A DNA stretch of 64,000 bases, from the NCBI GenBank assembly GCA_003141275.1, contig PLLM01000061.1, positions 7,131 to 71,130 on the forward strand, in the 5' to 3' direction. Of this stretch, positions 3,130 through 45,758 are shown piece by piece (positions within the stretch are counted from its first letter, which is position 1; each line of letters opens with the position of its first letter). The notes beneath the pieces are model-generated. The model did not search any database. It saw only the letters and a list, made by a program, of their open reading frames with translations, and was not told the DNA's origin. The stretch is from Phycisphaerales bacterium. GTDB taxonomy: Bacteria; Planctomycetota; Phycisphaerae; Sedimentisphaerales; Anaerobacaceae. The position numbers were made by a program, and so were the translations under genes.

Positions 3130-3368
3130 GTATTTCCAATCAGCCACGCTTCTACTTCTCGGCCTCGGTGCGGGGGGCTGGGACGCTAACGACCTATGAT
3201 TAACTTTGGAATTACAGAACAAAAAAAAGAAGAGCTTGCACAACGTATGCAGAAATGCAGCTTGTTCGAAGGGCCCTTTCCGCTTTTACTACTCCCGGCA
3301 AAAGAGTATAATTAAAATCGCCTTTGCAGGGTGGGGCAAAAGGCAAAGAAAGAAGGAGAATAACGGCT

Positions 3369-9468: not shown

Positions 9469-10050
9469 TCATGCAAGGTTCAATCTCGCGAACTCGCCGT
9501 GGTATTTAATAGCGGCCCGGTCATGTGCCTTCGCGGCGTCGATTTCGTTATCAAATTGTCCTAACCATATTCTTTTACCCTGGAACCTGAGATAGGCAGT
9601 CCACTTGCCGGTTTTCTTGCTGAAACATACGCCGATAAATCGCGAAGAGGTTTTCGTCCGCGTCTTTTTTTTGTTGTAGGCGTTCTGAGCGTATGTCGCC
9701 AGGCGGAGGTTGTCCCTGCGATTATCGAGGGCATCTCCATTTTTATGGTCAACTAACAGGCCCGCAGGGGGGGTCATAATTTCCCTGTGCAAATATATGA
9801 TTTTCGAGCCACTCCAGTAATTACCCATAAACCGGATGGCCGTAAAAGATTTGCCGTTCGGTTTTGCGATCCAATAAAAATTATTCAGCCGATAGTAATC
9901 CGCCTCGTCAACAAGCGTGTATTTCCCTTCCGTCAGCACTATCCTGCGATACGTGTACCCGTATTTCCATTTCCGGTACATCACCGCTGGCCACGCGAAA
10001 ACCCTGTCCATCCATTCCGGTATCCCAATTGTTAAATTAACCCTCATCAT
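9469..10050 (-). CDS. HNH endonuclease with C-terminal AP2 DNA-binding domain (homing-endonuclease-like)
   Basis: HNH_3-type motif 'LVDHKNGDALDNRRDNLRLATYAQNAYN' is followed by the AP2/ERF-type 'FIGVCFSKKTGKWTAYLRFQGKRIWLGQFDNEIDAAKAHDRAAIKYHGEFARLN'. Confidence 0.85.
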   Translation of the reverse strand: MMRVNLTIGIPEWMDRVFAWPAVMYRKWKYGYTYRRIVLTEGKYTLVDEADYYRLNNFYWIAKPNGKSFTAIRFMGNYWSGSKIIYLHREIMTPPAGLLVDHKNGDALDNRRDNLRLATYAQNAYNKKKTRTKTSSRFIGVCFSKKTGKWTAYLRFQGKRIWLGQFDNEIDAAKAHDRAAIKYHGEFARLNLA

Positions 10051-10156: not shown

Positions 10157-10820
10157 GACTATCAACTACAGAGGAAAACGCTTCCTCTATAATTGGCGCA
10201 AACCGACGCCTTGCGTCGTCCTGAGCAAGGCCGATGTCGTTTCGGCCGCGTCGAAGGATCTGGCCATCGACTACCTTTCCCGTCCGCCGGAGAGATTACA
10301 CGTCTCTCTATAATTGGCGCAAATATGCGCGCTTTTGACGAAAATTCCGATTTTGGGGGTGCCTCGAAATGCACTTAAGTTGTTATGGTATAAGGAGTAG
10401 AAAATTTTTTCAGAATTTCGGATTTGGCCAAAAAACACCTGCGCGAAATCGGCGAACAAATGTATCATACAACTGTTTTATACAAGTGTTTTATGCGACT
10501 TTTTTAGTCCTGTTTTAAGTCCCTATTTCACAAGCAGTTACATCAAGAGGTCTGCGTGAAAAACGAGCAAAAAACAGGCCCAAAAATGACCCAAAAAAGG
10601 GGCTTAGCCACAGATTTCACAGATGAACACTGATCTATAACCGCTTAATAATAATGAAGTTGCGTCGTTTTTTTAATGTACCCATCCCGCCTGTTTTTTC
10701 ATGCAAAAATTCGCGCCGCAGTGAACCCGCCTTTGGCAGATTTACGCTAAAAAATGGGGGCGGGAAAAAATGGTTGCTGTCCACATTATTACTGCATTCC
10801 AGTTTTCTGTCTATTTACGT

Positions 10821-11447: not shown

Positions 11448-11618
11448 AGAACACTTCCTTTCACAAGCGGCACCTGACAACGAGTCCAGGGCAGCCCAAC
11501 ACAATTTATATTTCGACTTAGACACTTATATATAGGCGTAGAAGGGGGATTAAATGTTGATTGAAAAACCTGACAAAAAAGGGTAAAAAAGGGTCTTAAC
11601 CACGGATTAACACGGCTG

Positions 11619-11641
11619 GGAATGTCATAGCTAACGGTAGA
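11619..11641 (+). repeat. Left terminal inverted repeat of the IS
   Basis: 'ggaatgtcatagctaacggtaga'. The exact reverse complement is present at 14581-14603. Confidence 0.9.
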
Positions 11642-11697
11642 AGGAAATAAGGCCTACACTTAATATATTATGGCGTAGTATTTTACAAAGATTTAAC

Positions 11698-11724
11698 TTG
11701 CTTCCAGCCGAAATGGTGTATAAT
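11698..11724 (+). promoter_or_regulatory. Candidate sigma70-type promoter for the Panacea operon
   Basis: TTGCTT (11698-11703), a 15-nt spacer, then a consensus TATAAT (11719-11724) preceded by tg. It lies about 30 nt upstream of ATG 11752, which has a GGAAGGAAAAA leader. Confidence 0.4.
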
Positions 11725-11751
11725 GACCCAAAAGAGAGTTGGAAGGAAAAA

Positions 11752-12189
11752 ATGGCAAAACTAACTGCACAAGATGTAGCTAATTATTTCCTATCTCTTG
11801 TGGAGGAGGATTGCGGAGACGGCATATCTAATCTTAAATTACAAAAGCTCCTGTATTATGCGCAGGGTTTTAATTTGGCGATTACGGGGAAACCTCTTTT
11901 TGATGAACCTATTTTGGCTTGGCAACACGGCCCTGTTGTCCGTATTGTATGGAGACATTATAGTCTCCACGGAGCAAACCCTCTGCCAAGACCAAAAAAA
12001 TTTGACTTGAGCAAGTTTGACGCTCCAACAAAAGAATTACTCGGTGATATTTGGGAAATTTATGGGCAATTTTCTGCTTGGAAACTTAGGAGTTTAACCC
12101 ACGGTGAAAAACCGTGGATTGAAACAGAAAAAAAACAAGCAATTTCGCCTAAGTTAATGACGGCTTACTTCAAAACGCTTTTGAGCTAA
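11752..12189 (+). CDS. Panacea/DUF4065 domain protein (SocA/GepA-like antitoxin type)
   Basis: 'MAKLTAQDVANYFLSL..ISNLKLQKLLYYAQGFNLAITGKPLFDEPILAWQHGPVV..VW' is the characteristic DUF4065/Panacea N-terminal pattern. ATG at 11752 within the longer ORF-track frame. Confidence 0.8.
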   Translation: MAKLTAQDVANYFLSLVEEDCGDGISNLKLQKLLYYAQGFNLAITGKPLFDEPILAWQHGPVVRIVWRHYSLHGANPLPRPKKFDLSKFDAPTKELLGDIWEIYGQFSAWKLRSLTHGEKPWIETEKKQAISPKLMTAYFKTLLS

Positions 12190-12193
12190 TGCT

Positions 12194-12610
12194 ATGGGCG
12201 AAAAGTTTCGAAACAGGGAAACACAACAAAGCAAAAATATTACATATCAAACACACGGCGAATCAACTAATAAACTGCACCCCGCCTTTTGTCTAAGATA
12301 TTTAGAAAACTCAAAATATGGTTTCCCTAAAGGCAACAAAGATAGACAGGTTATTATTATGGGGGACATATATCAAATGTGTCAAAAACCGTGGCAAGAA
12401 ATAGTTATGACGCCAAGAAATAAAGGGGGGAAAGAACTTATAGCCCAAAACGCCATTTTAAGAACACCCCGTATGAGTATTTCTCCTGATGAACGCTATT
12501 TATCTTTTTATATTGGCGGAGACAAAGGAAGAATGGTTGGATGTCGCCGCGACAAAGTGTTTTATGTCTTTTGGTTCGACTTCGATTTTGACCTTTACGA
12601 CCACGGATGA
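12194..12610 (+). CDS. Hypothetical 138-aa protein, candidate toxin partner of the Panacea protein
   Basis: Starts 4 nt after the Panacea stop on the same strand. No family recognised by eye. C-terminal 'GRMVGCRRDKVFYVFWFDFDFDLYDHG'. Confidence 0.5.
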   Translation: MGEKFRNRETQQSKNITYQTHGESTNKLHPAFCLRYLENSKYGFPKGNKDRQVIIMGDIYQMCQKPWQEIVMTPRNKGGKELIAQNAILRTPRMSISPDERYLSFYIGGDKGRMVGCRRDKVFYVFWFDFDFDLYDHG

Positions 12611-12613
12611 CAA

Positions 12614-13609
12614 TTAAACGTTAATATCATCGGGGCTTGCCGGTGGCAATTGCTTTTGTTCCTCTTGTGGCTCTTTCCCTTTTGATTGTTTTTCCTGAGC
12701 TAATTTTTCGCTATATTCGATTAACGGCAAATCTTTCCACGGCGGAAGTGCCCTTTGTATCATTCGCTTAAAATCAGCCCAAGTCGATGCTGCTTTCATT
12801 AAAGCTGTAACGGCAAATATATGCTCTCTAAGTTTAGGATTACCAATATCATCGGTTAACCATTGGAAAAATTTACTTTTTCTTCTTCCTTTTACGTCTT
12901 TGGGGTTTTTCTTTTTTAGCTCGTCAAGGACCCCCGGTGCAAGACGTTCATATACTATATCATTTGTTAATTTGCCGACAAGAATTGGCCGTTTTACGGA
13001 AATAGGATGATACCTCCAGCCCCTCAAACGAAACAAATTTGCGTAAAAATCGTCAGGGAAAGTTTTGGCCCATTTTAGTTTTTCATCCGAAATAAACATC
13101 TCCAGTATTTCTGCAAGGGCTTGCCGAGTGCGGATATATTGATAACCAGTAGCCTCATCAACTAATGCAATAATCCCAACTTTAGCAAAAGACCTTACAA
13201 GAATTTCACATTGAGCTGCAATATGTTTTTGTTGACTGTTCAGAGTGCCTTCTTTTCTTGCTTCTAATACAACTTCGCAAATATCAGCAAGTATTGTTGC
13301 TTCAAAACCAGCCGCTTCGCCCCCAGAAGGTATTTTGAATTTAATGGGATTTGTGGTCCTGTTGTATAAGTCCTTGCTAACATAGGATTTAAGCGCATTT
13401 GTTCCCAAAAATTTAGTAAGTCGGTCCTCCCCCTTTGTGGTAGTTGTTTTGCCAGACCCACCACTACTCATATTTAGCGCAGAATACAGACCGCTTTTGA
13501 CTAATACCCTTTTCCCGTCCTCAAGAACATAGCAAGGAATTTCTACGTTGCCTATTCTTAATGGGCTATCAGGTGAACCATAAACCGCTTTTACTATTTC
13601 ATTTGCCAT
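12614..13609 (-). CDS. P63C domain-containing protein
   Basis: N-terminus 'VYGSPDSPLRIGNVEIPCYVLEDGKRVLVKSGLYSALN' matches my memory of the P63C domain family. Its start codon lies 1 nt after the transposase stop, so the two are translationally coupled. Confidence 0.7.
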   Translation of the reverse strand: MANEIVKAVYGSPDSPLRIGNVEIPCYVLEDGKRVLVKSGLYSALNMSSGGSGKTTTTKGEDRLTKFLGTNALKSYVSKDLYNRTTNPIKFKIPSGGEAAGFEATILADICEVVLEARKEGTLNSQQKHIAAQCEILVRSFAKVGIIALVDEATGYQYIRTRQALAEILEMFISDEKLKWAKTFPDDFYANLFRLRGWRYHPISVKRPILVGKLTNDIVYERLAPGVLDELKKKNPKDVKGRRKSKFFQWLTDDIGNPKLREHIFAVTALMKAASTWADFKRMIQRALPPWKDLPLIEYSEKLAQEKQSKGKEPQEEQKQLPPASPDDINV

Positions 13610-13610
13610 T

Positions 13611-14498
13611 TTATGCCGCTCCTAAACTCCTTTGAATTGTTAAACTGAACACATCCTCTTGTTCTCTGTGGTTATAACGATAACAAAATTCATCTACGTA
13701 TTTAGGCAAGTGTCTCAAGCTGACTTTGTGATACTGCCCTACAATACCTCGTTTAAGCAAAGCCCAAAACGATTCTATTGTGTTGGTATGAATATCGCCC
13801 CGGACATACCATATAGAATGGTCGATTGATTTGTGTGGTAAAATTCTGGACATACCGAGATAACTCCGATATTGGTCTGTCATCAAAATAGTGTTTTGAA
13901 TATCAACCTTTTCCCGGACAAGAGCCGAAAACTTTTTTAAGGTAAGGCGAGATTTTCCAAACACCTTTGCATAAACCTGCCCTTTTCTTTCGACCATACC
14001 GACGACTGGTATTTTGCTTGTTCCCCTGCCACATTTATGTTTTATATGCACATCTTTACCGCTACCCCGTCTGGGCTTGCCCCCGACATACGTTTCATCC
14101 ATTTCAACGATACCGCAAAGCAGATTACGATGCTCTGGCTGATACATAGCATCTCTTACCTGCATACCTATACGCCAAGCGGTGTTCCGATTGACTTTTA
14201 AGTGTCTTGCTAACTGTCGGGCCGAAATACCTTTTTTGGCGTTTAAAATTAAGGACACAGCAAGCAACCATTTTTGAAGGGGTAAACGCGTTCTATGAAA
14301 TATGGTTTTGACGGTAACGCCATAGCTGGTGTTGCAACTGTTGCAATGATAACGATGCTCTTTGGGCAGGGGTGTTTGCTTGCTCGATTTGCAGTAAGGG
14401 CAACGCGGCGTTCCTTGCCACCTGACTTTTTCTAAGTAAGCAATGCAATCGTCCTGTTTCGGAAACCTTGCGAACACTTCAAAAATATCCATTGTCAT
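13611..14498 (-). CDS. IS1595-family (ISXO2-like) DDE transposase
   Basis: N-terminal zinc-ribbon 'CPYCKS..YHCNSCNTSY', an HTH-like 'GISARQLARHLKVNRNTAWR', then the ISXO2-like core 'VEMDETYVGGK..MTDQYRSY..H..GDIHTNTIESFWALLKRGI.GQYHKVS..HLPKYVDEF.YRYN'. Confidence 0.9.
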   Translation of the reverse strand: MTMDIFEVFARFPKQDDCIAYLEKVRWQGTPRCPYCKSSKQTPLPKEHRYHCNSCNTSYGVTVKTIFHRTRLPLQKWLLAVSLILNAKKGISARQLARHLKVNRNTAWRIGMQVRDAMYQPEHRNLLCGIVEMDETYVGGKPRRGSGKDVHIKHKCGRGTSKIPVVGMVERKGQVYAKVFGKSRLTLKKFSALVREKVDIQNTILMTDQYRSYLGMSRILPHKSIDHSIWYVRGDIHTNTIESFWALLKRGIVGQYHKVSLRHLPKYVDEFCYRYNHREQEDVFSLTIQRSLGAA

Positions 14499-14580
14499 AG
14501 CCCTTAAATTCTATCTACCAGTATCTATGTAGAATTATAACCTGTGTTCGGCCAAAGTCAACAAAAATCTAAAATATTTT

Positions 14581-14603
14581 TCTACCGTTAGCTATGACAT
14601 TCC
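14581..14603 (-). repeat. Right terminal inverted repeat of the IS
   Basis: 'tctaccgttagctatgacattcc' is the reverse complement of 11619-11641. Confidence 0.9.
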
Positions 14604-14854
14604 GACACGGCTTTATAACTGCTTGTATATAAAGCACTTATATTGTTTTTTTTAACACGAAGAACACAGAGAAACACGAAGAAAAAAAATACATAAAACC
14701 TTTATCCGGCGTAGGCGGAAAATGGCCGGAGTTAAATTTATCGCGAAGCGCAGGGCAGGAATTCAAATCAAAAAGCAAATGGCAAAAGGCAAAAATGTGG
14801 TATCCCGGAGGGATGATTTTTACCGCGGCGGGAAAAAAACGGTAGCTGTTCCCA

Positions 14855-15820
14855 TTATTCCCCAATTCCAACAATATTTAAATTGCCTGCCGAGATAGTT
14901 ACAACCCTTTCCTTTGTTTTTAATAAAAAGTGGGCGTAATGTATTATGGCTTGTATATGTAAGTTATAAATTTCTAACTCGGTTTCTTTTTCTTTAATCT
15001 TTCCTATTTTTTGTACATCAACAGATTTAATGCCCTCTTTATTAGCAAGGGTATTATTGGGAGGGATCAAAGCGTTATTTGCCTCTGTAATTTTAGCAGG
15101 ATTATATCCTGAAAATTCGTTGAAGTCCTTGATATCGTTTATTCCGAGAGACATCAAATTTTCTATTCCCTCCATTCTGGATAAATACCAATCATGTGTA
15201 TTTTTGTCGATTAGTAATCTATTGAGTTTGTCTTTACTCAAGATTCTTGCATTATTTATAATCGCTGCGCCGTAAAAGTTATCTCCATATTTGTATACAC
15301 CATCTAATGTGATAGCATATCTCAATTCAATATTTCCTATTTTTGCGTGTAATCTTCTCATAAATGAATCGGAGTTATAAAACCGAACTATAGTAGCAAA
15401 TGTAAGAACAAACAAAACAGCGTGAATAGGCGTTTCCAGTATTTGAAAACCTCCGTCACCTGTGCTAATAAAATGATTATTTCGATCGATACGGTTGGCG
15501 TTATCTATATCCCCAAATTTGCGATAATGCTGAAATATATAAGAGTAATTTTCCGTTATTAACTCCCAAGTATGATTGTATATTAACGCAAATAAAGGGG
15601 GAATGAATATTTGCTTGTCTGCTGGAAATAAGCTATATTGATATATATCAATACCAACTACGGTATGTTTTTGACTTGTTAGTTTCAGTATTTCGGCCTT
15701 TTCCTCTTCTGTATATTCTTTGGGGTACTCTTCTTGTTTTTTGAATCGTACTCTCGGGAGAACGTTAAATTCAAACATTTTATTTAAAAGCTCTTTTTTT
15801 AATTCAGCGATATTTATCAT
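14855..15820 (-). CDS. Class III nucleotidyl cyclase-like (adenylate/guanylate/pyrimidine cyclase fold) protein with an unknown C-terminal domain of about 120 aa
   Basis: The palm-domain motifs occur in the right order. 'HTVVGIDIYQYS' is the metal-Asp strand (compare F.DI.GFT). 'FISTGDGGFQILE' holds the second metal Asp (compare K.IGDa). 'LRYAITLDGVYKYGDNFYGAAIINNARILS' compares with hG.v..G....d.wG..VN.AaRl. The gene is conspicuously AT-rich relative to its neighbours. Confidence 0.6.
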   Translation of the reverse strand: MINIAELKKELLNKMFEFNVLPRVRFKKQEEYPKEYTEEEKAEILKLTSQKHTVVGIDIYQYSLFPADKQIFIPPLFALIYNHTWELITENYSYIFQHYRKFGDIDNANRIDRNNHFISTGDGGFQILETPIHAVLFVLTFATIVRFYNSDSFMRRLHAKIGNIELRYAITLDGVYKYGDNFYGAAIINNARILSKDKLNRLLIDKNTHDWYLSRMEGIENLMSLGINDIKDFNEFSGYNPAKITEANNALIPPNNTLANKEGIKSVDVQKIGKIKEKETELEIYNLHIQAIIHYAHFLLKTKERVVTISAGNLNIVGIGE

Positions 15821-16137
15821 CTCTCAACCCTTGGCTAAGCAAAGCTTACTATCTTTTCTTTACCCCTGGAATAACCGGGGACACCATACTTATTTCCTTA
15901 TTATTTATAAAGCATTTACCGGACGGCAAAGTTGGTAGGCAAAGGTGCGTTTCTCTTTTTGCAGTATATTGTTAAACTGGAAAGAAAACAAGCATTTTTG
16001 TTCGCCACCAAGGCACTAAGGCACTAAGTTTTTCGACTTAAGTAAAAGACAGGACAGTGTTAATCTGTGAAATCTGTGGCTTGATTAAATCGTCAATCGA
16101 CATTCGGCAATCGGCAATTGCTTAATCCGCCTTGCCT

Positions 16138-17183: not shown

Positions 17184-17322
17184 CGCAATCAGCGTCTAAA
17201 ATAAATCAGTGCAATCCGTGTAATCTGTGGCTAATAAAAAAACAGCGTATAGCGGACAGAAAAGACACAAGACAGCGGGCAGCGTACGAAGAAAAAATTT
17301 ATTTATTTTGCCCGGATTTTGT

Positions 17323-30837: not shown

Positions 30838-32178
30838 TTGATTTTGTTCGATAAATTACGCAAAGCCGTTTCAGATAAAATCATTCTGACACAAGGCGAT
30901 GGCCTCAAGGCCCGGAGTGCTCGTAGTTCGTTAATACTGGCATCGGGCGTTTTTTTTGAAAGAGTCGTTGGTCTTGTTCGCAATATGATTCTTGCCAGAA
31001 TGCTGGCACCTGAGAATTTTGGCCTTATGGCCATTGTGCTGGCGGTAATGGCCGTATTGGAATCTTTTACTGATATTGGTATAAAGCAGTCGGTTATCTA
31101 TAATCAGGAAGGCAACAAGAAGGAGTATCTTAATGTTATATGGTGGATACAGATACTACGTGCTGCCGGCATATTTATTACAGCGTTTCTAATAGCTCCG
31201 GTCATCTGTCGTTTTTATGGTAAACCGGAACTACTCAATCTGCTCAGAATTTCATTTCTGGTCGTTGTGTTCAATGGATTGACTAGCCCGTGTTTATATC
31301 TGCTGGACAAAGAATTCCGATTTGTTAAGTCGTTATGCCTGATACAGGGCAGTTCAATAATCGGAACGATGGCATCAATAGGGCTGGCTTTATATATGCG
31401 AAATGTATGGGCTTTAGTAATAGGGCAGGTCGGACAGAGCGCCGTGCAATGCCTGTTATCCAATATTTATTGTCCATTTATACCAACTCTTAATTTTGAC
31501 CGAAAATACCTCAGGGAAGTTTTAAGTTTTGGGAGAGGAATGGCTGGATTGTCATTTTTAACAGTGATTGCAATGGAGACTGATATTTTTGTGATGGGAA
31601 AGCTTTTGCCTTCTGCTCAGGTGGGAATGTATGCCTTGGCTCTTACACTGGCACAGCAGCCGAGGTTTTTATTTTCTCAGACAATCGGCCGGGTTTTACT
31701 GCCTGCATTTGCGGAGAAACAGAACGACAAAACGGCATTGCGAAATGCTGTTGTAACAATACTTAAAAATATGTTGCTAATTGGCGTACCGCTGTCGATT
31801 CTGGTCGCATTTGGCTCAAAAATTATATTGTCTGTCGTTTACGGGGCTCAATTTAGTGCGGTTGCCGTTCCATTTACATTATTGTGTTTTGCCACGCTGT
31901 TTAATGCTCAGGCTATTGTATTAGCTCAGGTGTATATTGGGATGGGGCTGCCTTACCTGCACCGACGTTACGTCACTCTTATTGCCGGATTGATTGTCAT
32001 CCTGATGTATCCGGTGATAAAGTGGTTCGGCCTCAGCGGTGCGGCGGGCGTTCTGCTATTTTCACATATTATAGGGGTCTTTATGCAGATTGTTTGGATG
32101 AAAAATGTAATAGGCATTAGAATGAAGGATTATATCTATTGTTGGTTGCCTTTTCGCCTATCACCAATTAGGAATTAA
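30838..32178 (+). CDS. Wzx-type polysaccharide flippase (MOP/Polysacc_synt_3 family)
   Basis: TTG start. About 12-14 hydrophobic spans. N-terminal 'ERVVGLVRNMILARMLAPENFGLMAIVLAV' is typical of oligosaccharide flippases. Confidence 0.8.
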   Translation: MILFDKLRKAVSDKIILTQGDGLKARSARSSLILASGVFFERVVGLVRNMILARMLAPENFGLMAIVLAVMAVLESFTDIGIKQSVIYNQEGNKKEYLNVIWWIQILRAAGIFITAFLIAPVICRFYGKPELLNLLRISFLVVVFNGLTSPCLYLLDKEFRFVKSLCLIQGSSIIGTMASIGLALYMRNVWALVIGQVGQSAVQCLLSNIYCPFIPTLNFDRKYLREVLSFGRGMAGLSFLTVIAMETDIFVMGKLLPSAQVGMYALALTLAQQPRFLFSQTIGRVLLPAFAEKQNDKTALRNAVVTILKNMLLIGVPLSILVAFGSKIILSVVYGAQFSAVAVPFTLLCFATLFNAQAIVLAQVYIGMGLPYLHRRYVTLIAGLIVILMYPVIKWFGLSGAAGVLLFSHIIGVFMQIVWMKNVIGIRMKDYIYCWLPFRLSPIRN

Positions 32179-32355
32179 TGTGTTGGTGGATAAATTTGGC
32201 CGTAATATGATTTTTTGTGTTCCTGTGTGGTTGTGATATGCCGTTGCGTTTTAATTCCGATATAATGGCGAAACGCAACTTGTGCACATAAAGGGCTTGG
32301 TGACACTATCAATTCCGAAACATCACCTAAAGAGAATGATGCGATAGATGTATGT

Positions 32356-33633
32356 TTGCTTGGGGCTCAGTTAGACGTAGGCAATCAGGGTTGTCGCGCT
32401 CTTGCCGCTTCTCTTGTAAAACTTATTATAGATAACAGGCCGAACGCCAGAATCTATTTGCTTTATGGGAATCGAACCGGCGGAGCTCTAAAATTGCGCG
32501 TATCGGGGAAAATTGTTGAGGTGGAGATGGTTAATTTCCGTCTTTCTCCGAGGGGCGCATTACGCGAACATTTACTCTGGGTTCTATTTCTGGCGTGTAT
32601 TTGTCGCTTGATGCCGATTACAACTATTAGAAACTGGATTGTGCGTTCGAATCAACGGTTGAGAGTTTTGATGGCGGCTGATTTTGTGGGAGATATAAGG
32701 GCAGGCGACAGTTTTAGTGATATTTATGGGGTGCGAAGGTTCCTTTTTGGAATTATTCCCAGTATTATCGCAATTCTTATGCGAAAAAAACTTGTTTTGC
32801 TGCCCCAGACTTACGGGCCGTTTAAATCAAAAGTTTCAAAACAAGCTGCGCGGTTTGTAATGAGGAGGGCCGTGAAACTTTATTCTCGTGATCGGGATAG
32901 TATAGAGTTAGTGCACGAGATGCTGGGCGAACAGGATAAGCGCAAGAGCGTACAGTTTTGCCCGGATGTTGCATTTGTTTTGGAATCTGTTTTGCCGGAA
33001 AATCCGGATATACAACCAGAACTGAACAGGGAGTCCAATATTCCGCTGATCGGATTTAATATAAGCTCAATGTTATACAGGGAAGGGTATACCGGCAACA
33101 ATGAGTATGGACTCATGTTTAACTACAAAGAGTTTGTACATATACTACTCCGGGATTTGATGGAACGAACGAACGCGCATGTTTTGCTGGTTCCGCACGA
33201 GTACTTTCTGTATAAGATTGGCAGTCAGGAATGCAATGAAATTCATATATCCGAGAAAGAACGCGAGTCAACGGACAAGAAATATCATGACAGGATTCAT
33301 TTGGTAAAACGAGAGTATAATCAGAATGAGATTAAAGGGATTATTGGGCTTTGTGATTTCTTCGTTGGGTCTCGTATGCATGCGTGCATTGCAGCACTTT
33401 CGCAGTGTATCCCGGCAGTGGGAATTGCTTACAGCAAGAAGTTTCATGGGGTTTTCGAGAGTATCGGCTTGAGCGACTGTGTTGCCGATGCGAGGACCAG
33501 CACCAAAGATGAATTACTGGGGAAAATCATTTCGTCGTTTGAGAAAAGAGAATTCATTCGAAATCATCTGATGCGCACTATACCTTCCATTCAACGTGAA
33601 ATTCAGAATATCTTCAGAAATATATATTATTGA
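32356..33633 (+). CDS. Polysaccharide pyruvyl transferase family protein (N-terminus possibly clipped by a frameshift)
   Basis: '[24 protein letters not shown]' (N-terminal Rossmann strand and loop) and C-terminal '[33 protein letters not shown]' are typical of WcaK/CsaB-like pyruvyl transferases. The first canonical start, TTG 32356, lies inside the conserved first strand. Confidence 0.75.
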
Positions 33634-33641
33634 CTGGTCTA

Positions 33642-34301
33642 ATGCTGCTGTCTAAATTATTTTTCAAACTGTATGCCCTGAAAAGCGAGAGGATGAGGAA
33701 AGTTATTCTGACTTTGGTGTCAAGGTTTGAAGGCGGACAGATGCATTCGGAAACACTGCGGGCAATATTTTCAAAGTATCACAATATTGAAATTGGAATG
33801 TACAGTTATGGCGGGTGTTTTAATCTGGATCATATTCGACCTTTTACCAAAATAGGCAGATATTGTTCGTTTGCTGAAAATGTATATGTATATAACGCAA
33901 ACCACCCTTTTGACCGCAAATCGGCTCACCCATTTTTCTATGACCCTTCACTTGGTTACGTTGGAACCGAACAAATATTGCGAAGAGGTATTGAGATAGG
34001 AAATGACGTGTGGGTTGGCCAGAATGTTATAATTTTGCCGAGTGTCACGCAAATCGGTGATGGCGCCGTTATTGGGGCCGGCACGGTAGTAACCAAGAAT
34101 GTGCCGGATTTTGCGGTGGTTGTGGGCAATCCTGGCAGGGTGATTAAATACAGGTTTACCGAAGATACCATACAACAATTGAAGCAGGAACGATGGTGGG
34201 ATAAAGACATTGATGATTTGCGGGAAAATTTAGATGCTTTTACGCATCGTTATAATGTTCCGTTTGATAACGCAAAGGAGCCGAATACCACGGGCACATG
34301 A
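33642..34301 (+). CDS. Hexapeptide-repeat O-acetyltransferase (CatB/Vat-like xenobiotic acyltransferase family)
   Basis: '[25 protein letters not shown]' followed by LbH repeats '[54 protein letters not shown]'. Confidence 0.8.
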
Positions 34302-34435
34302 TCCGTTCGCAAGCGTTAAATAACTGCGGCAGTGACTCAATATTAACCAGTTTAACCCAAAAATAGTTCCTTGTGTACATCCTGTAATGCCGGCTATCAA
34401 GCAATTAACAGCGTGACGGCAAAAGCGGCGGTGGC

Positions 34436-35368
34436 ATGATATTTATGTTAGAAAATAAGGCCAAACTACTTCTTAAAAGGTTACGTTATCTGATTCAGCG
34501 TTGGGTTGTTGCTCCTTTGCAGCCAAAATCGTTCAGAGATGAATACCAATTTTTTACTCAAATAAAATCTATGGCGTATGATGATACTGCATATAAAGAG
34601 GCATTATTGCGGAGCAGAAGTCATCAGGTGGACAAAGTTCTGACATTTGAGAATTTTGTGGCCAGGAATGGGATGTTACCCGGTATCAAAGAATTACTGC
34701 AGGAGGTGTTAGAAAGTCAGGACCATGATGATGCTACGGTTAATTGGTGCAGGCAGGTTCTTGCCGAATATCAGGAACGGGCAACGGGCAGCCGACCAGT
34801 GGAAACGACGTTTGACCTGCTTTATGATGCCGAATCCAGGCGAATGTTGAAAAGTATAATAGAGAATCGCAGGAGCATACGCAGCTTTACACAACAACCT
34901 ATATTGAAAGAAGATATAAATGAAATTCTTGCTTCCGGCCTGTGGGCGCCAACCGGATGCAATAGGCAGATGATTAACTATCTTGTGCTCGACGATAAGG
35001 AAGATATGAAATTTTGCCAGAAGATGGCAGGAGAGACATATCCTTTTCCGTCTGAGGCCCCGATTTGCGTCGTAATTCTTGTGGACCCGAGAGTATATGC
35101 ATTGCCTGGACATAGGCACATGGCATATTTGGAAACAGGCGCTGCTGTTCAAAATATGCTGCTGACCGCGCGGGTGCTTGGTATTGGAGGATGTTGGCTG
35201 TTCTGGCAGGATGCAGCGCCTAAACATTCGGAATTTCTGTCGCGGTTCAAACTTCAGCCATGGTTGCTTCCGGTTGCGCTGGTATGCTTTGGATATCCGG
35301 CAGCGGTTCCAAAGTTCCCTCCGTATCGGAAGGCGCTTTCGAAATGTGTGTACTATCCCGGAAAATAG
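34436..35368 (+). CDS. Nitroreductase-family protein with an N-terminal extension of about 140 aa
   Basis: 'IENRRSIRSFTQQPILKEDINEILASGLWAPTGCNRQ' and 'GAAVQNMLLTARVLGIGGCW' are nitroreductase-fold signatures. Confidence 0.75.
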   Translation: MIFMLENKAKLLLKRLRYLIQRWVVAPLQPKSFRDEYQFFTQIKSMAYDDTAYKEALLRSRSHQVDKVLTFENFVARNGMLPGIKELLQEVLESQDHDDATVNWCRQVLAEYQERATGSRPVETTFDLLYDAESRRMLKSIIENRRSIRSFTQQPILKEDINEILASGLWAPTGCNRQMINYLVLDDKEDMKFCQKMAGETYPFPSEAPICVVILVDPRVYALPGHRHMAYLETGAAVQNMLLTARVLGIGGCWLFWQDAAPKHSEFLSRFKLQPWLLPVALVCFGYPAAVPKFPPYRKALSKCVYYPGK

Positions 35369-35543
35369 AAGCCATTTTATGACATGTTTTTTGCCTCGTG
35401 GGTAATGCTTGTCAATAAATTAAAAGGCCGCCAAATTTTCCTGGTATATGTAACAATGCTGGTTTTTAGTAAGCCGGATAATTATTGTTGGTTGTGATAT
35501 ATTTGTCAAAGCGGATGAACACGTCAGATGGTGGGAATTACCA

Positions 35544-36218
35544 GTGGTAACAAGTAGGGCGAAAGTATTGAACCTGACATTTCATGGTATTGGAGAACGC
35601 CCTAATGGTGAACACGAGGACGAAGCGAGTATATGGTTAAGTGTCGAGCAATTCAACTTTGTCCTGGATTTTATCAAGGGGCGCCAGGATATATTTATTA
35701 CGTTCGATGACGGGAACAAATCGGATGTTGAGATTGCCCTTCCCTTACTCTTGAAACGTGGAATTAAAGCGGCATTTTTTGTTTGCCCCGGAAATTTTGG
35801 TTCGTCTGGTTATTTGACAGGGGAAGATGTGCATAGCCTGTCGCGGGCCGGGATGATTATTGGTTCTCACGGGATGCATCATCGTGACTGGAGACAATTG
35901 AAAAACGAAGAATTGATGGGCGATTTGCGGGTATCCAGAGAGATTCTTGAAAAGGAAACAGAACAACCTATTTCGTACGTTGCGTGTCCCGGCGGTTCGT
36001 ATGACAGGCGGGTGCTGAATTATCTCAAGAAAGCCGGATATGAGAGGGTATATACCAGTGATACCGGCTATTCAAGACCGGATGCTTTTCTGCAGGCCAG
36101 AAATACAATCCATTCAAATATCAATCCGGATTTGCTGCGACGAATAATCGAGCAGCGTACATGGAATTCTGCGGGTTTTATTCGTGTGGTTAAAAAATGT
36201 ATTAAACGATGGTGTTAG
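35544..36218 (+). CDS. Polysaccharide deacetylase-family protein (divergent NodB-like)
   Basis: GTG start. 'LNLTFHGIG', 'ITFDDGNKSDVEIALPLLLKRGIKAAFFV' and 'GSHGMHH' are the NodB-homology motif positions. Confidence 0.7.
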   Translation: MVTSRAKVLNLTFHGIGERPNGEHEDEASIWLSVEQFNFVLDFIKGRQDIFITFDDGNKSDVEIALPLLLKRGIKAAFFVCPGNFGSSGYLTGEDVHSLSRAGMIIGSHGMHHRDWRQLKNEELMGDLRVSREILEKETEQPISYVACPGGSYDRRVLNYLKKAGYERVYTSDTGYSRPDAFLQARNTIHSNINPDLLRRIIEQRTWNSAGFIRVVKKCIKRWC

Positions 36219-36244
36219 CCCCGTAATCGGCAAAATATAAAAAT

Positions 36245-37597
36245 ATGCAGCCGTTAACATTAGTCATTTCGCTTATTGGTTCTGTCCTGGTGCTGTTTTT
36301 GCAGCCGGCCAAGGCATTTGCTGTTTACATAATCACGCTTTTATTTTACCCCACATTTCTGGTTCTCCCGCTTGGAACATTGAATTTTAAGGCGGGGAGG
36401 ATTGTTGTTTTAGTGTTATTACTGCGTTGTCTGGCAAATACCAGAATCAGAAGCTCTTTCAAGTTGTCTGTGATTGATAAGTGGTTTTTTGCCGGTACCG
36501 GCGTTGCAATGATAGTGCCCTTTTTTTCCTATCACATTCCATTCATGCAATTATTGGCGAGCAAGTGCGGCGAGTTAATGGATACGTTGCTTGCATATCT
36601 GGTTGCCAGATTTTGTATCAGGGACCGATTCTCATTTGTAACTGCCATGAAATGGATTGGTATGGCGATTATACCACTGGCTTTGTTGGGAGTAGTTGAA
36701 TCGTGCACTGCATGGATGCCTTTTGTTCCATTGAGACAATATTGTCCGTGGGACACAAAGGCGCTGGTAATTACGGACCGCTCAGGATTTTTCAGGGCAA
36801 CGGGACCGTCAGGCCATCCAATTACGTTTGGTGCATCTTTTGCAATGTTCGCCCCTCTAATTTACTGTTTAAGACATCATGGCGGGATTTCAAAAAACTT
36901 ATGCTATCTGATGACAGTAATGGCTGTTCTTGGGACACTGAGCAGTATGTCCAGCGGGCCATGGATGCTGCTTCTGGTTATTATTGTCTGTTTGGTACTC
37001 GAAAATTATAAGAAATGGATTAAACCGCTTATTATTTTCGGCGTTGTTTTCCTTATCGTTGTAGCTGTAATCAGCAACAGGCCATTCTATCACGTGGTTG
37101 CTACTTATGCCAATCCGCTTGGCGGCACTGGATGGCATCGTGCGAGGTTAATAGATTTGTCTATAGAGCATTTCAACGAGTGGTGGCTGATGGGTTATGG
37201 GGAGCAAGACCCGGGGTGGGGTGAGGAATTGGGAAATAGCTGGACGGATATAACAAATCAGTATATTGCAAACGGAGTTATGTATGGCATTGCAGGAGTT
37301 ATTACCTTTGTAGGCACTTTGGTGGCTTCTCTCATGATGATAATACGATGCTATAAAACGGAGAAAGAATATACGGCAAAATCCATCTTTTGGGCCTTAG
37401 GCTGCATGATTATAGGTTTTATGATAGCATTTAACTCGTTTACACTGTTTGCACAGTCAGGTACGCTTTTTATATGTATGTTGGGTATTACTGCGTCGTT
37501 GTCGAGTTTTACTTTGTTGCCTCATCTTGCGAATGGAAAGGTACTGGCACAGAGAATGCAGTTTGCAATCAATAATATTGAAAGCATGAGAAAATAA
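36245..37597 (+). CDS. O-antigen ligase/polymerase (Wzy-like) family membrane protein
   Basis: 450 aa, more than 10 hydrophobic spans. A large central loop has 'GFFRATGPSGHPITFGASFAM', resembling the Wzy_C/O-antigen ligase signature region. Confidence 0.7.
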   Translation: MQPLTLVISLIGSVLVLFLQPAKAFAVYIITLLFYPTFLVLPLGTLNFKAGRIVVLVLLLRCLANTRIRSSFKLSVIDKWFFAGTGVAMIVPFFSYHIPFMQLLASKCGELMDTLLAYLVARFCIRDRFSFVTAMKWIGMAIIPLALLGVVESCTAWMPFVPLRQYCPWDTKALVITDRSGFFRATGPSGHPITFGASFAMFAPLIYCLRHHGGISKNLCYLMTVMAVLGTLSSMSSGPWMLLLVIIVCLVLENYKKWIKPLIIFGVVFLIVVAVISNRPFYHVVATYANPLGGTGWHRARLIDLSIEHFNEWWLMGYGEQDPGWGEELGNSWTDITNQYIANGVMYGIAGVITFVGTLVASLMMIIRCYKTEKEYTAKSIFWALGCMIIGFMIAFNSFTLFAQSGTLFICMLGITASLSSFTLLPHLANGKVLAQRMQFAINNIESMRK

Positions 37598-37726
37598 TAT
37601 TTATGGCAAAGGTATTATTTTTTTTTTTCAAACGCGATATAGGGATGGCCAAAAGCATAATTTACAGAAAAAATATTACTTGATCAATGGTATGTTATCC
37701 ACAGTTTTTAAGATTATGGTATAGCA

Positions 37727-38506
37727 ATGTGTGATGTGAAGAAAGAGAAGGGTTTTTATGATAAAGAATACAGCCAAAGCCGATATGCTGTTGAATTGGG
37801 TGAACAGCATGCTGCTTATGTAGCGCTTAAAAACTTCATTGTTAAATATCGGTTATGCGACAAGAGATGTCTTGAAGTAGGGTGTGGGCGAGGTTTTTTT
37901 CAAGACTTAGTCGAAGACTATACCGGGGTTGATTTGTCAGATTCTGTTAGGCAAAACCTACATAAGCCTTTTTACCAGACCTCTGCAACTGAATTACCTT
38001 TTGGGAATGATGAGTTTGACGCCATATGGTCGGTATATACGCTCGAACACATTCCAGAGCCAGAGAAAGCTTTAACGGAAATGCGTCGAGTTTTGAAACC
38101 TGGGGGCTTAATTTTCTTGAAACCAGCTTGGCAATGCAGGCCCTGGGCTGCATCTGGATTCTCGGTTCGGCCTTACAAAGATTTTGATTTGAGGGGTAAA
38201 CTTGTAAAGGCTTCAATACCTATTAGAAATTCTATCTTATTTCGGTCTCTGTATGTTTTCCCCAGAAGAATAGTAAGAAGTTTTGTGTATGTTCGTGGCA
38301 AAGCCCATACGAAATTCGCATACAAGCAACTGAATCCTAACTATGACCATTATTGGCAGCCTGACTCAGATGCCGTAAATTCGATGGACCCTTATGAAGC
38401 CGTGTTATGGTTTATCTCTCGCGGTGACACCTGTCTATCTTATACGAACTTTCTATCAAGGTTTTTTGTTAAAACAGGTGCCGTAATATTCCGAATAATG
38501 AAGTGA
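37727..38506 (+). CDS. Class I SAM-dependent methyltransferase
   Basis: Motif I 'CLEVGCGRGFF', 'LPFGNDEFDAIWSVYTLEHI' and 'LKPGGLIFL' match the Methyltransf_11 pattern. Confidence 0.8.
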   Translation: MCDVKKEKGFYDKEYSQSRYAVELGEQHAAYVALKNFIVKYRLCDKRCLEVGCGRGFFQDLVEDYTGVDLSDSVRQNLHKPFYQTSATELPFGNDEFDAIWSVYTLEHIPEPEKALTEMRRVLKPGGLIFLKPAWQCRPWAASGFSVRPYKDFDLRGKLVKASIPIRNSILFRSLYVFPRRIVRSFVYVRGKAHTKFAYKQLNPNYDHYWQPDSDAVNSMDPYEAVLWFISRGDTCLSYTNFLSRFFVKTGAVIFRIMK

Positions 38507-38513
38507 TACTATA

Positions 38514-39557
38514 ATGAATTATGATGTTGTTATCGCCACACGCAACCGCCCCGAGGCACTAAAGGTTTCGATTCCCCTCATTCTCAACCAGAACCGTGCT
38601 CCTCGAAAGCTGGTTATTGTTGATTCAAGCGACGACTGCGAGCGAGTGAATAGAACTGTTACTAAAATTATGGCTGATTCTCCGGTAAAATTGGAAATCA
38701 CGAATTCTGAAGCCAATTCGGCGCAACAGCGCAATATTGGACTAAAGTATGTGGAATCACCGGTAGTGATGTTTCCTGATGATGATTCTTTGTGGTGGCC
38801 CGGTGTTGCTGAAGCAATAATGCGTATCTATGAGCGAGACGAAAACGGCGATATCGGCGGCGTGTCTGCCGACTTAATTAAATTATGTCCCCCGCAGGCG
38901 CATCTTGAGATAAATTCTGAAAACAAAATGCTGTTTAAAGATCGATTGCGTCAACGAATTTCGGGGCTAAGGCATATACTGAATTGCAGAATCGGCTCTG
39001 ACCCTATGTATATTCTGGGACAGTCATTTTGGAAAAACAGTGATGTTCCTGGTTGGATGGTCGATGAAAATGCTTCATTAACAGAATATATGGCTGGTTG
39101 TAGAATGTCATTTCGTACAGATGCAATCCGGTCGGTTGGTGGTTTTGATCAAGACCTTGGAGCATTTGTTGGCTGGGCAGCTTACGAGGACGCAGCAGCT
39201 AGTTTTGCTGTGATGTCAAGAAGAGCTTTGGTAACTGCTCATAACGCTAAAGTGTGCCATTACACATTTCCAAGTCAGCGTGGCGGAGGTTTTGAACTGG
39301 GTTTTATCAATCAGTTCAATCGTGCTTACGTAATATGTCGGTACTCACCACCATGTTCGACTGCTCGTCGAGCGCTCAAAAAGTTTGGACATTATAAGGC
39401 GCTGCAATATCTTTTAGGCATTAAAAACAGATTTGGGCGGGATAGAATAAGAGGGCACCTAAAAGCATTACGAGCTATGAAGGTGTTATTAGAGTCCCCT
39501 CCTGAATGCTTGCGAGACCGTTATTTAGAACAATGCCAAAAGAACTTAAAAGGTTAG
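38514..39557 (+). CDS. Family 2 glycosyltransferase
   Basis: 'YDVVIATRNRPEALKVSIPLILNQ', 'LVIVDSSDD' and 'VVMFPDDDSLW' (DxD region). Confidence 0.8.
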   Translation: MNYDVVIATRNRPEALKVSIPLILNQNRAPRKLVIVDSSDDCERVNRTVTKIMADSPVKLEITNSEANSAQQRNIGLKYVESPVVMFPDDDSLWWPGVAEAIMRIYERDENGDIGGVSADLIKLCPPQAHLEINSENKMLFKDRLRQRISGLRHILNCRIGSDPMYILGQSFWKNSDVPGWMVDENASLTEYMAGCRMSFRTDAIRSVGGFDQDLGAFVGWAAYEDAAASFAVMSRRALVTAHNAKVCHYTFPSQRGGGFELGFINQFNRAYVICRYSPPCSTARRALKKFGHYKALQYLLGIKNRFGRDRIRGHLKALRAMKVLLESPPECLRDRYLEQCQKNLKG

Positions 39558-39559
39558 TA

Positions 39560-39736
39560 TCAATGGTAACATCTTCAATGCTTGGAAAGCCGGTTATTTG
39601 CACAGATTGCACTGCCGTTAGGGATTATGTCACTGATGAGGTTAACGGCCTTCTTGTTAAAAATGGATTACGATGTAGTTATATTGATAAAGTTGTGACG
39701 GCACTTGTTACAAATAGTAAAGTATCGAGAGAATAG
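39560..39736 (+). pseudogene. C-terminal fragment of a GT1/GT4-type glycosyltransferase
   Basis: 'MLGKPVICTDCTAVRDYVTDEVNGLLVKNG' matches the conserved GT4 C-terminal block (G.PVI.T..GG..E.V.DG.NGLLV). The roughly 300 aa that should precede it are missing, and the frame overlaps the end of the GT2 gene. Confidence 0.55.
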
Positions 39737-39738
39737 TA

Positions 39739-40491
39739 ATGGGGATTTTATCGTTTGTTATCTGGGTGATGGCGATTATTGGATTTGGCTGTGCAGTTAT
39801 ATTCTGCTATTTTGTTTTACCATGGCTTTATGGCAGATGGCAAAGGGTATCGCTTAAGCTATTGGCCGTTAAAACTAAATCGGTTGTGTTTACCTTCGAT
39901 GACGGCCCGAGTGATGTTACTCCTGATGTTCTCGCTGTTTTGCGCCAATATAATGTCAAGGCCACTTTTTTTCTGGGCGGAGCAAGAATAGCGGGCCGGG
40001 AAAGTATTGTCAGACAAATAGTGGCTGAGGGACATGAAATTGGTTCGCACACGTATAGCCATTTACATCAATGGTATGTTTCGCCGATATCTGGAATCAG
40101 AGATATTAAACGCGGGTGGCAGGCTATAGATAATGCGATGGAAATCCAAAATGGTAAATACCCGTTCCGGCCGCCATACGGCAAACTTAATCTTCTGACC
40201 CTGTTGTATTTGTGGGCAAAGAGAGTCCCTGTGATTTTTTGGACAACAGATTCACGAGATATAGCAGGCATCGTGGATTTCGATAGTCAAAGGAATGCGA
40301 TGTTAATCAAAAAGGAAGGTGGTACAGTTATATTGGCCCATGACTATACGGTAAAGACAAAAGACAGGATTATTCCATCATTGTGTGCATCTATTATGGC
40401 CGCAAGAGAAATGGGAATGGCAGTAAGAACCATTTCAGAATTGCGTGCTATTCGCCGGGTTAATAATTTGTCAGATAAAAAGAACATCTGA
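39739..40491 (+). CDS. Polysaccharide deacetylase (NodB homology domain)
   Basis: TM anchor, then 'VVFTFDDGPSDVTPDVLAVLRQYNVKATFFL', 'GHEIGSHTYSH' and 'RPPYGK'. These are the canonical CE4 motifs. Confidence 0.85.
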   Translation: MGILSFVIWVMAIIGFGCAVIFCYFVLPWLYGRWQRVSLKLLAVKTKSVVFTFDDGPSDVTPDVLAVLRQYNVKATFFLGGARIAGRESIVRQIVAEGHEIGSHTYSHLHQWYVSPISGIRDIKRGWQAIDNAMEIQNGKYPFRPPYGKLNLLTLLYLWAKRVPVIFWTTDSRDIAGIVDFDSQRNAMLIKKEGGTVILAHDYTVKTKDRIIPSLCASIMAAREMGMAVRTISELRAIRRVNNLSDKKNI

Positions 40492-41672: not shown

Positions 41673-41769
41673 CGGCGATTCGGAAACAGATGAGCCGTTA
41701 TCTGAAATATGATATGTGTTGTAGTTAAACATTCGGGTTTGTAAAGGCGGCATCACAAACATAATTTTT

Positions 41770-42723: not shown

Positions 42724-42748
42724 CGTTTGTTTTCTTTCGAGATATAGC

Positions 42749-43621
42749 ATGAAAACGCGATATGTTTTGGTAACTCCCGTACACAATGAGCAGCAGTTGC
42801 TTGATCAGGTAATTGCATCCGTTGTTTCCCAAACGATTTTACCCGGGAAGTGGTTTATTGTGGATGATGGCTCTACAGACGACTCACCTAATATTATAAA
42901 ACGGTACGAAAATAAATATGCCTTTATTTCTTACCTTCGGTTTGATGAACATTGCCAGGAAAGTTACTATAGTCGCAGGGTTTCTGTGGTTCTGCATGGG
43001 ATTGAGGCTGCCAAGAATCTGGAATACGATTTTCTGGGGGTATTGGATGGTGATATTACTTTAGAGAAGACATATTATGAAGCGATTCTGCAGGAATTTG
43101 AACGAAATACAAAGCTCGGAATTGCTTCTGGGATTTATGTAAATAAATGCGGCGACAGCCTCCAATCCGTTTTAATAGATGCTAACCATACTCCCGGGGG
43201 CATTCAGATGTTCAGACGGCAATGTTATGAAAAAATTGGAGGATATATACCACAGAGGTACGGAGGTGATGATTCGTGTGCTGAAATCATGGCTCGGATG
43301 CGCGGATGGCAGACACGGTCATTTTCAAAGTATCGGGTGATTCATCATCGGCCTACGGGAACAATAGGTGGTGCAAGCATAATTCGTGCAAGATTTCGCC
43401 AGGGATTGGCAGAATACGGCGTTGCAACTCATCCACTGTTCATGGTGGCCAAATCTATACGCCGCGCGGTTCTGGAAAAACCATATTTCATAGGCAGCAT
43501 CTCCAGACTTTTCGGATTCCTGTATGGTTATTGCCTGCGAGAAGAAAGAAAATTTCCCCCCGAGGCTATACGTTTTGTTCGAAAAGAACAGATGAGAAGA
43601 TTGTTTGGCCGGGCTATATGA
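42749..43621 (+). CDS. Family 2 glycosyltransferase
   Basis: ATG 42749 ('MKTRYVLVTPVHNEQQLLDQVIASVVSQT'), then 'WFIVDDGSTDDS' and 'LDGDITL'. Confidence 0.8.
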   Translation: MKTRYVLVTPVHNEQQLLDQVIASVVSQTILPGKWFIVDDGSTDDSPNIIKRYENKYAFISYLRFDEHCQESYYSRRVSVVLHGIEAAKNLEYDFLGVLDGDITLEKTYYEAILQEFERNTKLGIASGIYVNKCGDSLQSVLIDANHTPGGIQMFRRQCYEKIGGYIPQRYGGDDSCAEIMARMRGWQTRSFSKYRVIHHRPTGTIGGASIIRARFRQGLAEYGVATHPLFMVAKSIRRAVLEKPYFIGSISRLFGFLYGYCLREERKFPPEAIRFVRKEQMRRLFGRAI

Positions 43622-45755: not shown

Positions 45756-45758
45756 TGT

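Follow-up and report, generated by a model that had tools for sequence, protein, structure and literature searches.

The window analysed here is a stretch of 64,000 nucleotides (nt) from contig PLLM01000061.1 of a Phycisphaerales bacterium. It contains an insertion sequence (IS) of the IS1595 family, and inside this element lies a two-gene unit, panA and panT, which we read as a PanAT toxin–antitoxin-like pair. The first gene, panA (11752..12189, + strand), encodes a standalone Panacea (DUF4065) protein of 145 amino acids (aa). The second gene, panT (12194..12610, + strand), encodes a protein of 138 aa that family searches and hhalign place in the PanT cluster T1, and for which structural models predict a RelE/ParE-like fold. 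A preliminary description of this DNA had pointed out the same two open reading frames (ORFs), had located them inside a mobile element and had proposed that the second encodes an unrecognisable protein, a candidate for a new toxin family. Our analysis bears out the genes and their location, but not the new family.

The panA–panT unit and the family of its partner

The identity of the first gene is clear. Its product matches the Pfam model PF13274 (SocA_Panacea) over residues 30–122 (E = 2.1e-19; 70.9 bits against a cut-off of 25.7), as the preliminary description had claimed when it assigned the gene to DUF4065. It also matches phrog_1281 (E = 2.3e-47). The motifs that had been quoted for the two proteins, LKLQKLLYYAQGF..AWQHGPV, CLRYLENSKYGF and VFYVFWFDFDFDLYDHG, are all found in them. 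The NCBIfam equivalog model for SocA (NF047745) gives only 63.3 bits against a cut-off of 190 and aligns with the N-terminal half alone. Judged by these matches, the first gene product is a Panacea protein and not SocA itself. The first ORF as a whole runs over 11698..12189, but the TTG codon at 11698 was considered as the start of PanA and rejected. The likely start is ATG 11752, because a GGAAGGA motif resembling a Shine–Dalgarno ribosome-binding site lies a few bases upstream and because the resulting length of 145 aa fits the 142–149 aa of the relatives.

The two genes are tightly packed. The stop codon of panA (TAA, 12187–12189) is followed after 4 nt by the ATG of panT at 12194, exactly the gap that had been noted before, and panT is probably translationally coupled to panA across it. 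The promoter that had been proposed for the pair (11698..11724, + strand) fares less well. Both hexamers, TTGCTT (11698–11703) and TATAAT (11719–11724), are present with their 15-nt spacer, but this spacer is suboptimal and lies outside the 16–18-nt rule of our consensus scan, which does not detect the site. Around panAT we found 8 promoter-like sites, compared to 8.4 expected from shuffled sequences, which is no enrichment. A panAT promoter at this position is plausible, not established.

The arrangement of the pair is that of a PanAT system. According to Kurata et al. 2022 (PMC8832971), such pairs are two-gene units with a gap of at most 100 nt that are conserved across taxa. In the window the gap is 4 nt and the pairing is kept across taxa; panT lies directly downstream of panA, which is the T1 order (A|T). 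Conservation of the gene neighbourhood had been put forward as a check on the pair: a Panacea gene, confirmed with Pfam, lies immediately upstream of the PanT homologue in nine out of nine loci for which upstream DNA is available. These loci are the window, L001 (a contig from another JGI metagenome), L002/L003 (phage E212 and an E. coli prophage), L004 (phage Emek), L005, L006 (a fragment), L007, L009 and L010. They come from peat and other metagenomes, from E. coli and from Salmonella phages.

The two proteins also diverge together. Identities to the window pair drop in parallel for PanA and PanT (70/68, 52/29, 51/33, 43/33 and 41/24%), as expected for co-evolving partners. The ratio of nonsynonymous to synonymous substitution rates (dN/dS) is 0.11–0.19 for PanT; comparing the window with L001 gives 0.11 for PanT and 0.12 for PanA. 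With synonymous sites close to saturation, these values are rough. As read from these ratios, panA and panT are both under purifying selection. A contig from another peat sample (L020) equals window positions 11830–13011 over 1,152 bases, except for a single in-frame deletion of 30 nt in panT (window ~12377–12406; the remaining ORF is L020:365-751). The deletion lies between two ATG triplets and drops residues 62–71, including W67. It may represent a naturally occurring allele that inactivates the toxin, as one would expect if PanT is costly, or, given that it is seen in a single contig, an assembly artefact.

It is easy to see how PanT could be taken for something new. It has no match in Pfam, NCBIfam or PADLOC, nor among PDB sequences, and the database names of its relatives are all “hypothetical protein”. 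A word-indexed protein search returns only three close relatives, all from JGI metagenomes, and the alignment of these close relatives found no relative in the genome contig collection. An exhaustive search with a hidden Markov model (HMM) built from the same alignment finds far more. It yields 558 representatives (50% clustering) at E ≤ 1e-3 and 97 at E ≤ 1e-10; among 150 listed representatives, the proteins are 94–151 aa long and match from end to end. Over its whole length PanT also matches phrog_8366 (E = 6.8e-20), a phage family of unknown function.

The phages lead to the name of the family. A tblastn search of phage genomes with PanT finds the P22-like Escherichia phages E212 and EC.P3. 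With the E212 homologue as query, it reaches Salmonella phage vB_SemP_Emek, phage phiv205-1 and seven Pseudomonas phages. In Emek the pair was located by tblastn and annotation as YP_006560566.1 (the partner) and YP_006560565.1 (its Panacea neighbour). The family profile with the window PanT as first sequence aligns with the Emek partner at an hhalign probability of 100% (E = 2.1e-46), and the window PanT finds it directly by tblastn (E = 7e-13). YP_006560566.1 is listed as pT1/T1 in Dataset S1 and Table S1 of Kurata et al. 2022 (PMC8832971). The pT1 label is carried by 217 of the 1,268 PanAT pairs predicted in that study, and the MqsR cluster pT2 alone is comparable, with 218; for the T1 members that were tested there, the mode of action is predicted as “mRNase” (Table S1, PMC8832971).

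Since the family holds a listed T1 member, the partner does not represent a new family. The proposal of a toxin family not seen before, with the 138-aa protein as its founder, has hardly any chance of being correct: the empty domain searches and uninformative names are outweighed by the 558 representatives, the T1 member among them and the correspondence to phrog_8366. Its sequence identifies the window PanT as a divergent member of an already catalogued class, the joint-largest PanT class T1, with 27–33% identity to most relatives. A named node for the family could not be identified in the text of the NetFlax paper (PMC10440598).

A comparison with the closest known systems shows where the window pair is ordinary and where it is not. 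The Emek pair (PMC8832971) likewise consists of a standalone PanA of ~145–149 aa, which comes first, and a homologous partner of ~135–140 aa a few nt after; the Emek PanA is 52% identical to that of the window. The window partner differs from the phage T1 members in sequence (~27–30% identity), in having, with its clade, Tyr106 in place of the Arg of the family, and in being carried by an IS1595 element rather than at a prophage moron locus. SocAB of Caulobacter crescentus, a type VI toxin–antitoxin system, shares the Panacea domain through SocA, but the window partner is not SocB, which forms cluster T10 in the Kurata scheme. Moreover, SocA works as an adaptor for ClpXP, in contrast to other PanAs, which bind directly to their toxins.

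Three observations on the homologous loci may be useful beyond the window. In E212-like P22-type prophages, RefSeq annotates a “Panacea domain-containing protein” while the intact 140-aa T1 ORF downstream is unannotated in 8 listed of 34 matching genomes (for example L003:6456-6878 in E. coli UMNK88, NC_017641.1; the others are 33 further RefSeq E. coli genomes). Because the T1 ORF is left unannotated, annotation-based neighbourhood surveys miss PanAT(T1) pairs. In P22-like loci the pair lies between the ejection genes and mnt/arc/ant (L003:5210-11350 and L004:1211-5339), a moron-type position that suggests a lysogen-benefit or exclusion role. In L005 (2946-4435) a distant PanAT(T1) adjoins a divergent ParE_toxin gene with a TraY/RHH-like partner, and this toxin–antitoxin cluster sits beside a gyrA/parC-like gene.

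The IS1595-family element and its cargo

The mobile element proposed earlier is real, and its borders are sharp. Together with its passenger genes it extends over ~2,987 bp (11618..14604, ends ±1 nt) and is delimited by inverted repeats and a target-site duplication, both of which enclose PanAT. The left terminal inverted repeat, GGGAATGTCATAGCTAACGGTAGAA, occupies 11618..11642 (+ strand) and the right one 14580..14604 (− strand); they are 25 nt long with one terminal mismatch. The perfect 24-mer within them, GGAATGTCATAGCTAACGGTAGAA, has two matches in the window, 11619–11642 (+) and 14580–14603 (−), where 0 are expected. Directly outside these repeats lie two identical 8-bp copies of the target site, ACACGGCT, at 11610..11617 on the left and 14605..14612 on the right. 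A match of 8/8 at a fixed position has a chance probability of ~1.5e-5, and 8 bp is the typical length of the target duplication for the IS1595 family. The element also stands out by its base composition (38–40% G+C vs 47–55% in the wider flanks).

Four genes in two convergent operons fill the element. Opposite to panA and panT runs the gene for the IS1595-family DDE transposase (13611..14498, − strand; 295 aa), which is recognised by Pfam PF12762 (E = 8.2e-33), by the zinc-ribbon model PF12760 (E = 8.6e-10) and by NCBIfam NF033547 (191 bits vs a cut-off of 75). A candidate transposase promoter, TTGACT-16 nt-TATAAT (11/12 matches; 14534..14561, − strand), lies inside the right IS end upstream of 14498. 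The fourth gene encodes a P63C-domain protein of 331 aa (12614..13609, − strand; Pfam PF10546, E = 2.7e-36; phrog_2384, E = 3.4e-107). It is convergent with panT, with 3 nt between the stops, and it starts 1 nt past the transposase stop.

This layout is not unique to the window. In L001 the same four genes occur in the same order and spacing, with aa identities of 70% for PanA, 68% for PanT, 50% for P63C and 66% for the transposase. Because the four-gene unit recurs in such a diverged copy, the PanAT/P63C cargo must be old in this IS lineage. The 1-nt spacing between transposase and P63C is kept as well (L001 P63C 849-1778, transposase 1780-2529), which points to translational coupling and perhaps to an accessory role of P63C, as a DNA-binding protein, in transposition.

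The modules of the element do not always travel together. In L021 a PanAT pair that is 72% identical at the protein level has another downstream gene and no P63C. Conversely, none of nine loci with P63C homologues in metagenome contigs (L011–L019) has a transposase or PanAT nearby. Hence, PanAT, P63C and transposase modules can exist apart. On the evidence of this search the composite is restricted to the window, L020 and L001, and the 24-mer of the inverted repeat has 0 exact matches in two public collections (genome and metagenome contigs). A superficially similar arrangement is found in L009 (849-3184), where a distant PanAT(T1) and a DUF3892 gene are followed by an IS1595 transposase that is 35% identical to that of the window; weak inverted repeats, 78% complementary, lie at 2031-2048 and 3167-3184. 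We rejected PanAT as shared IS cargo in this case: no inverted repeats surround both PanAT and the transposase, and the latter probably belongs to a separate simple IS.

Elements of the IS1595 family with passenger genes (transporter IS) have reportedly been treated by Siguier, Gagnevin and Chandler in 2009. The window element shares with them the zinc ribbon and DDE transposase, the terminal repeats, the 8-bp duplication and the presence of extra genes, but differs in what it carries, namely PanAT and a transposase-coupled P63C gene. Our literature search found no description of this cargo combination in IS1595. A different group of mobile elements offers a parallel for the pair itself: Tn3-family transposons carry toxin–antitoxin pairs as integral passengers (Lima-Mendez et al., mBio 2020, PMC7157771). 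There, too, a type II toxin–antitoxin-like pair lies inside the element ends and is conserved along with the element. The window element differs in being a DDE IS of ~3 kb without a resolvase or res site, and in the PanAT class of its pair.

Predicted fold and function of PanT

What could the 138-aa protein do? An AlphaFold2 model of the window PanT, built with the family alignment, has a mean predicted local distance difference test score (pLDDT) of 90.5 and a predicted template modelling (TM) score of 0.78. It consists of a disordered basic tail (residues 1–29), a strand (31–33), two helices (49–63 and 67–72) and four further strands (80–83, 102–107, 112–119 and 122–129). A Foldseek search with such a model had been suggested as a check on the partner, and it gave a consistent answer with weak statistics. 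Ranks 1–19 against the PDB are all toxins of the RelE/ParE superfamily, among them HigB (5ycl_B, probability 0.85), aRelE (1wmi), YoeB (2a6r), RelK, YafQ, ParE and HP0894, but the best E-value is 0.12 and the best probability 0.85. The RelE/ParE topology had been expected from the motif pattern ahead of the Foldseek outcome.

A second and shorter family member, P0060 (115 aa), gives a model of similar quality (pLDDT 91.0). Here Foldseek finds archaeal RelE (1wmi_A) with an E-value of 0.014, a probability of 1.00 and a TM-score of 0.62, and S. aureus YoeB with a TM-score of 0.67. Nearly all of the top 50 matches are RelE/ParE toxins or RelE-like domains, for example Cami1. The BFVD collection of viral models yielded nothing significant or informative by Foldseek.

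The family has a set of strongly conserved residues. In a 101-sequence family alignment G79 and G116 are invariant (101/101), closely followed by W67 and D129 (100/101 each), E81 and Y135 (98/101 each), F32 (97/101), H137 (94/101), P30 (93/101), F123 (92/101), and R118 and P93 (89/101 each). Among these, E81, R118, D129, Y135 and H137 are the obvious candidates for an active site. The C-terminal Y-x-H of PanT is reminiscent of the catalytic residues at the C-termini of YoeB (H83/Y84) and P. vulgaris HigB (Y91/H92). With RelE, YoeB, HigB and YafQ in general, PanT shares the predicted topology of a strand, two helices and an antiparallel sheet, the conserved acidic, basic, aromatic and His residues, and a place downstream of the antitoxin gene. 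It differs from them in being ~40–50 residues longer, with the basic disordered N-terminus of ~30 residues and an insert at ~84–101 with the conserved P93 and D99. It also differs in its partner, which is a Panacea protein, whereas theirs are RelB, YefM, HigA and DinJ.

We think it probable, though far from certain, that panA and panT form a type II PanAT toxin–antitoxin-like pair, carried as IS1595 cargo, in which a T1 mRNase of RelE fold is directly neutralised by PanA and which has a role in addiction, defence or both. PanT most likely has a fold of the RelE/ParE superfamily (a strand, two helices and a four-stranded sheet) behind its disordered tail. Its most likely activity is the translation-dependent endonucleolytic cleavage of mRNA, for which E81, R118, D129, Y135 and H137 would supply the active site. 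Neutralisation would come about through direct contact of PanT with PanA, a protein without additional domains. This is suggested by the fact that PanA is a bare Panacea domain and that standalone Panacea antitoxins neutralise directly (PMC10440598). If PanA were lost or inactivated, PanT would arrest translation. On an IS, such a pair would penalise loss of the element (addiction), serve as an abortive-infection-type defence, or do both.

Several results weigh against this reading. The first group concerns the fold. No PDB match in Foldseek reaches E ≤ 1e-3, and TM-scores range from 0.45 to 0.67 over both models. Across 102 family members, Pfam models of the RelE/ParE/HigB/YoeB/YafQ type produce no match down to a cut-off of E ≤ 1, and searches of PDB sequences with two family profiles are empty at E ≤ 10. 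Comparisons by hhalign with single sequences of E. coli RelE, YoeB, HigB and YafQ and of P. vulgaris HigB, all approximate query sequences, are empty as well. We can therefore say with moderate confidence that the PanT models resemble RelE-type toxins at the level of the fold; PanT is not a demonstrated member of any RelE/ParE sequence family. In addition, position 106 is Arg in 89% of the family and Tyr in all four members of the clade to which the window PanT belongs, and the activity of this Tyr106 clade may differ from that of the family.

The second group concerns the behaviour of relatives and of the element itself. Non-toxicity of the partner had been named in the preliminary description as a refuting result, and for the T1 family the published outcomes are mixed. 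In E. coli, no toxicity was seen for the members from Salmonella phage Emek and E. coli MOD1, and while the C. cadaveris member was toxic there, its cognate PanA failed to neutralise it (PMC8832971). Hence, no T1 pair has been validated as a true toxin–antitoxin system: two of the three tested members were non-toxic and the third was not neutralised. In metatranscriptome contigs of the same peat study panAT has no coverage, an uninformative result. The window derives from peat metagenomes; contigs of four runs span the element with both junctions, and they contain neither an empty-site joint nor a second insertion site. Present-day mobility of the IS is unproven; in the diverged copy L001 the ends are cut off.

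The main rival reading takes T1 proteins for conditional effectors. It is possible, albeit doubtful, that the pair serves defence or exclusion on demand and is no classical addiction pair: T1 would be harmless in an uninfected cell and turn active only once PanA, in the role of a sensor, has registered a trigger, for example infection by a phage. Both on the IS and in P22-like prophages the pair would then be defence cargo. Two of three T1 members being non-toxic when over-expressed in E. coli would fit this reading. So would the position of the pair between DNA-transfer genes and mnt/arc/ant in the P22-like E212, in Emek and in E. coli UMNK88, which we take to be the sieA-type moron locus. 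Furthermore, Panacea has been proposed as a sensor domain by Ernits et al. (PMC10440598). But that idea applies mainly to multidomain PanAs, and the PanA of the window is standalone. Neither PanA nor PanT is matched by any PADLOC model, and one T1 member is toxic on its own. The non-toxic constructs may also have been compromised by an N-terminal extension: the Emek ORF was cloned as annotated, with a start that lies 62 nt inside panA, and thereby has ~21 extra N-terminal residues compared to the family.

Another departure from the mRNase proposal would be a T1 protein with a RelE/ParE fold that is no RNase, such as one that poisons gyrase as ParE does or a binding protein without enzymatic activity. 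The predominance of non-toxic T1 members in E. coli agrees with it, and ParE structures do appear among the fold matches (8c26_A and 6xrw_C; 6n90_B for P0060), but the best and most numerous matches come from the RNase branch (RelE, YoeB, HigB and YafQ). The near-invariance of an acid, a base and aromatics (E81, R118, Y135 and H137) also argues against it. Such a set is typical of the RNase members and not of ParE. Together with the “mRNase” label of T1 in Kurata et al. (PMC8832971), this makes a non-RNase function quite improbable. We regard it as still less probable that PanAT, and perhaps P63C too, is part of the transposition module, for example by slowing growth or raising retention around transposition. 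Four genes that almost fill an element, whose order and spacing are kept in a copy that is 50–70% identical, and the start of P63C 1 nt past the transposase stop in both copies would fit such a role, and the Tn3-family transposons set a precedent for toxin–antitoxin pairs (PMC7157771). Against it stand the L021 pair, which does without P63C and has another gene downstream, and the P63C homologues of ~50% identity that occur elsewhere with neither a transposase nor PanAT nearby. The same PanAT class is also common in phages and on chromosomes without any IS.

Surroundings of the element and wider meaning

The neighbourhood of the IS contains a repeat reminiscent of REP sequences, AGCCACAGATTTCACAGAT..., with three copies in the window, at 10606–10632 (+), 16055–16081 (−) and 17214–17232 (−). 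Two of these copies form an inverted pair of 27 nt, 96% complementary, around a 5.5-kb stretch of low G+C content (33–44%) that includes, besides the IS, two ORFs of 234 and 321 aa. The target site of the IS (11600–17, ccacggattaacacggct) resembles the REP-like repeat. Many contigs of several runs break at 10603–10641, as expected for a multi-copy repeat. The 321-aa ORF (14855–15820, − strand; 33–36% G+C) is the immediate right-hand neighbour of the IS. Pfam, NCBIfam and PADLOC give no match for it, and its match to phrog_23933 is weak (E = 1e-3). Just outside the low-G+C island, a 193-aa protein of the homing-endonuclease type is encoded at 9469–10050 (− strand), with an HNH endonuclease domain (PF13392) and an AP2 domain (PF00847). 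Further to the right, 30838–50028 is a polysaccharide/exosortase locus with neighbours very rich in tetratricopeptide repeats (TPRs). Its genes include Polysacc_synt_3, a Wzy_C-like gene, an exosortase EpsH–nucleotidyl transferase fusion, and an ATPase of the chain-length-determinant type.

The PanAT pair of the window adds no new toxin family. Rather, it places a divergent T1 member in a cleanly bounded and very compact IS1595 element. T1 is one of the two largest classes of PanA partners, and its mechanism has only been predicted. The element is a convenient test case for two questions: whether T1 proteins are RelE-like RNases, and for what reason they are carried by small insertion sequences. 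For this purpose it has three assets, a diverged sister copy with all four genes, a near-identical copy with an in-frame deletion in the toxin gene, and a clear fold prediction.

One could also combine the long association with the conditional action of T1. The IS1595 lineage would then keep PanAT(T1) and the transposase-coupled gene for the DNA-binding P63C protein long-term, and T1 would be a trigger-dependent effector of RelE fold. We consider this combination unlikely, but not far-fetched. If it is true, then the IS would be a self-mobilising mini defence or addiction island, and it would provide a natural system for learning what the T1 class does.

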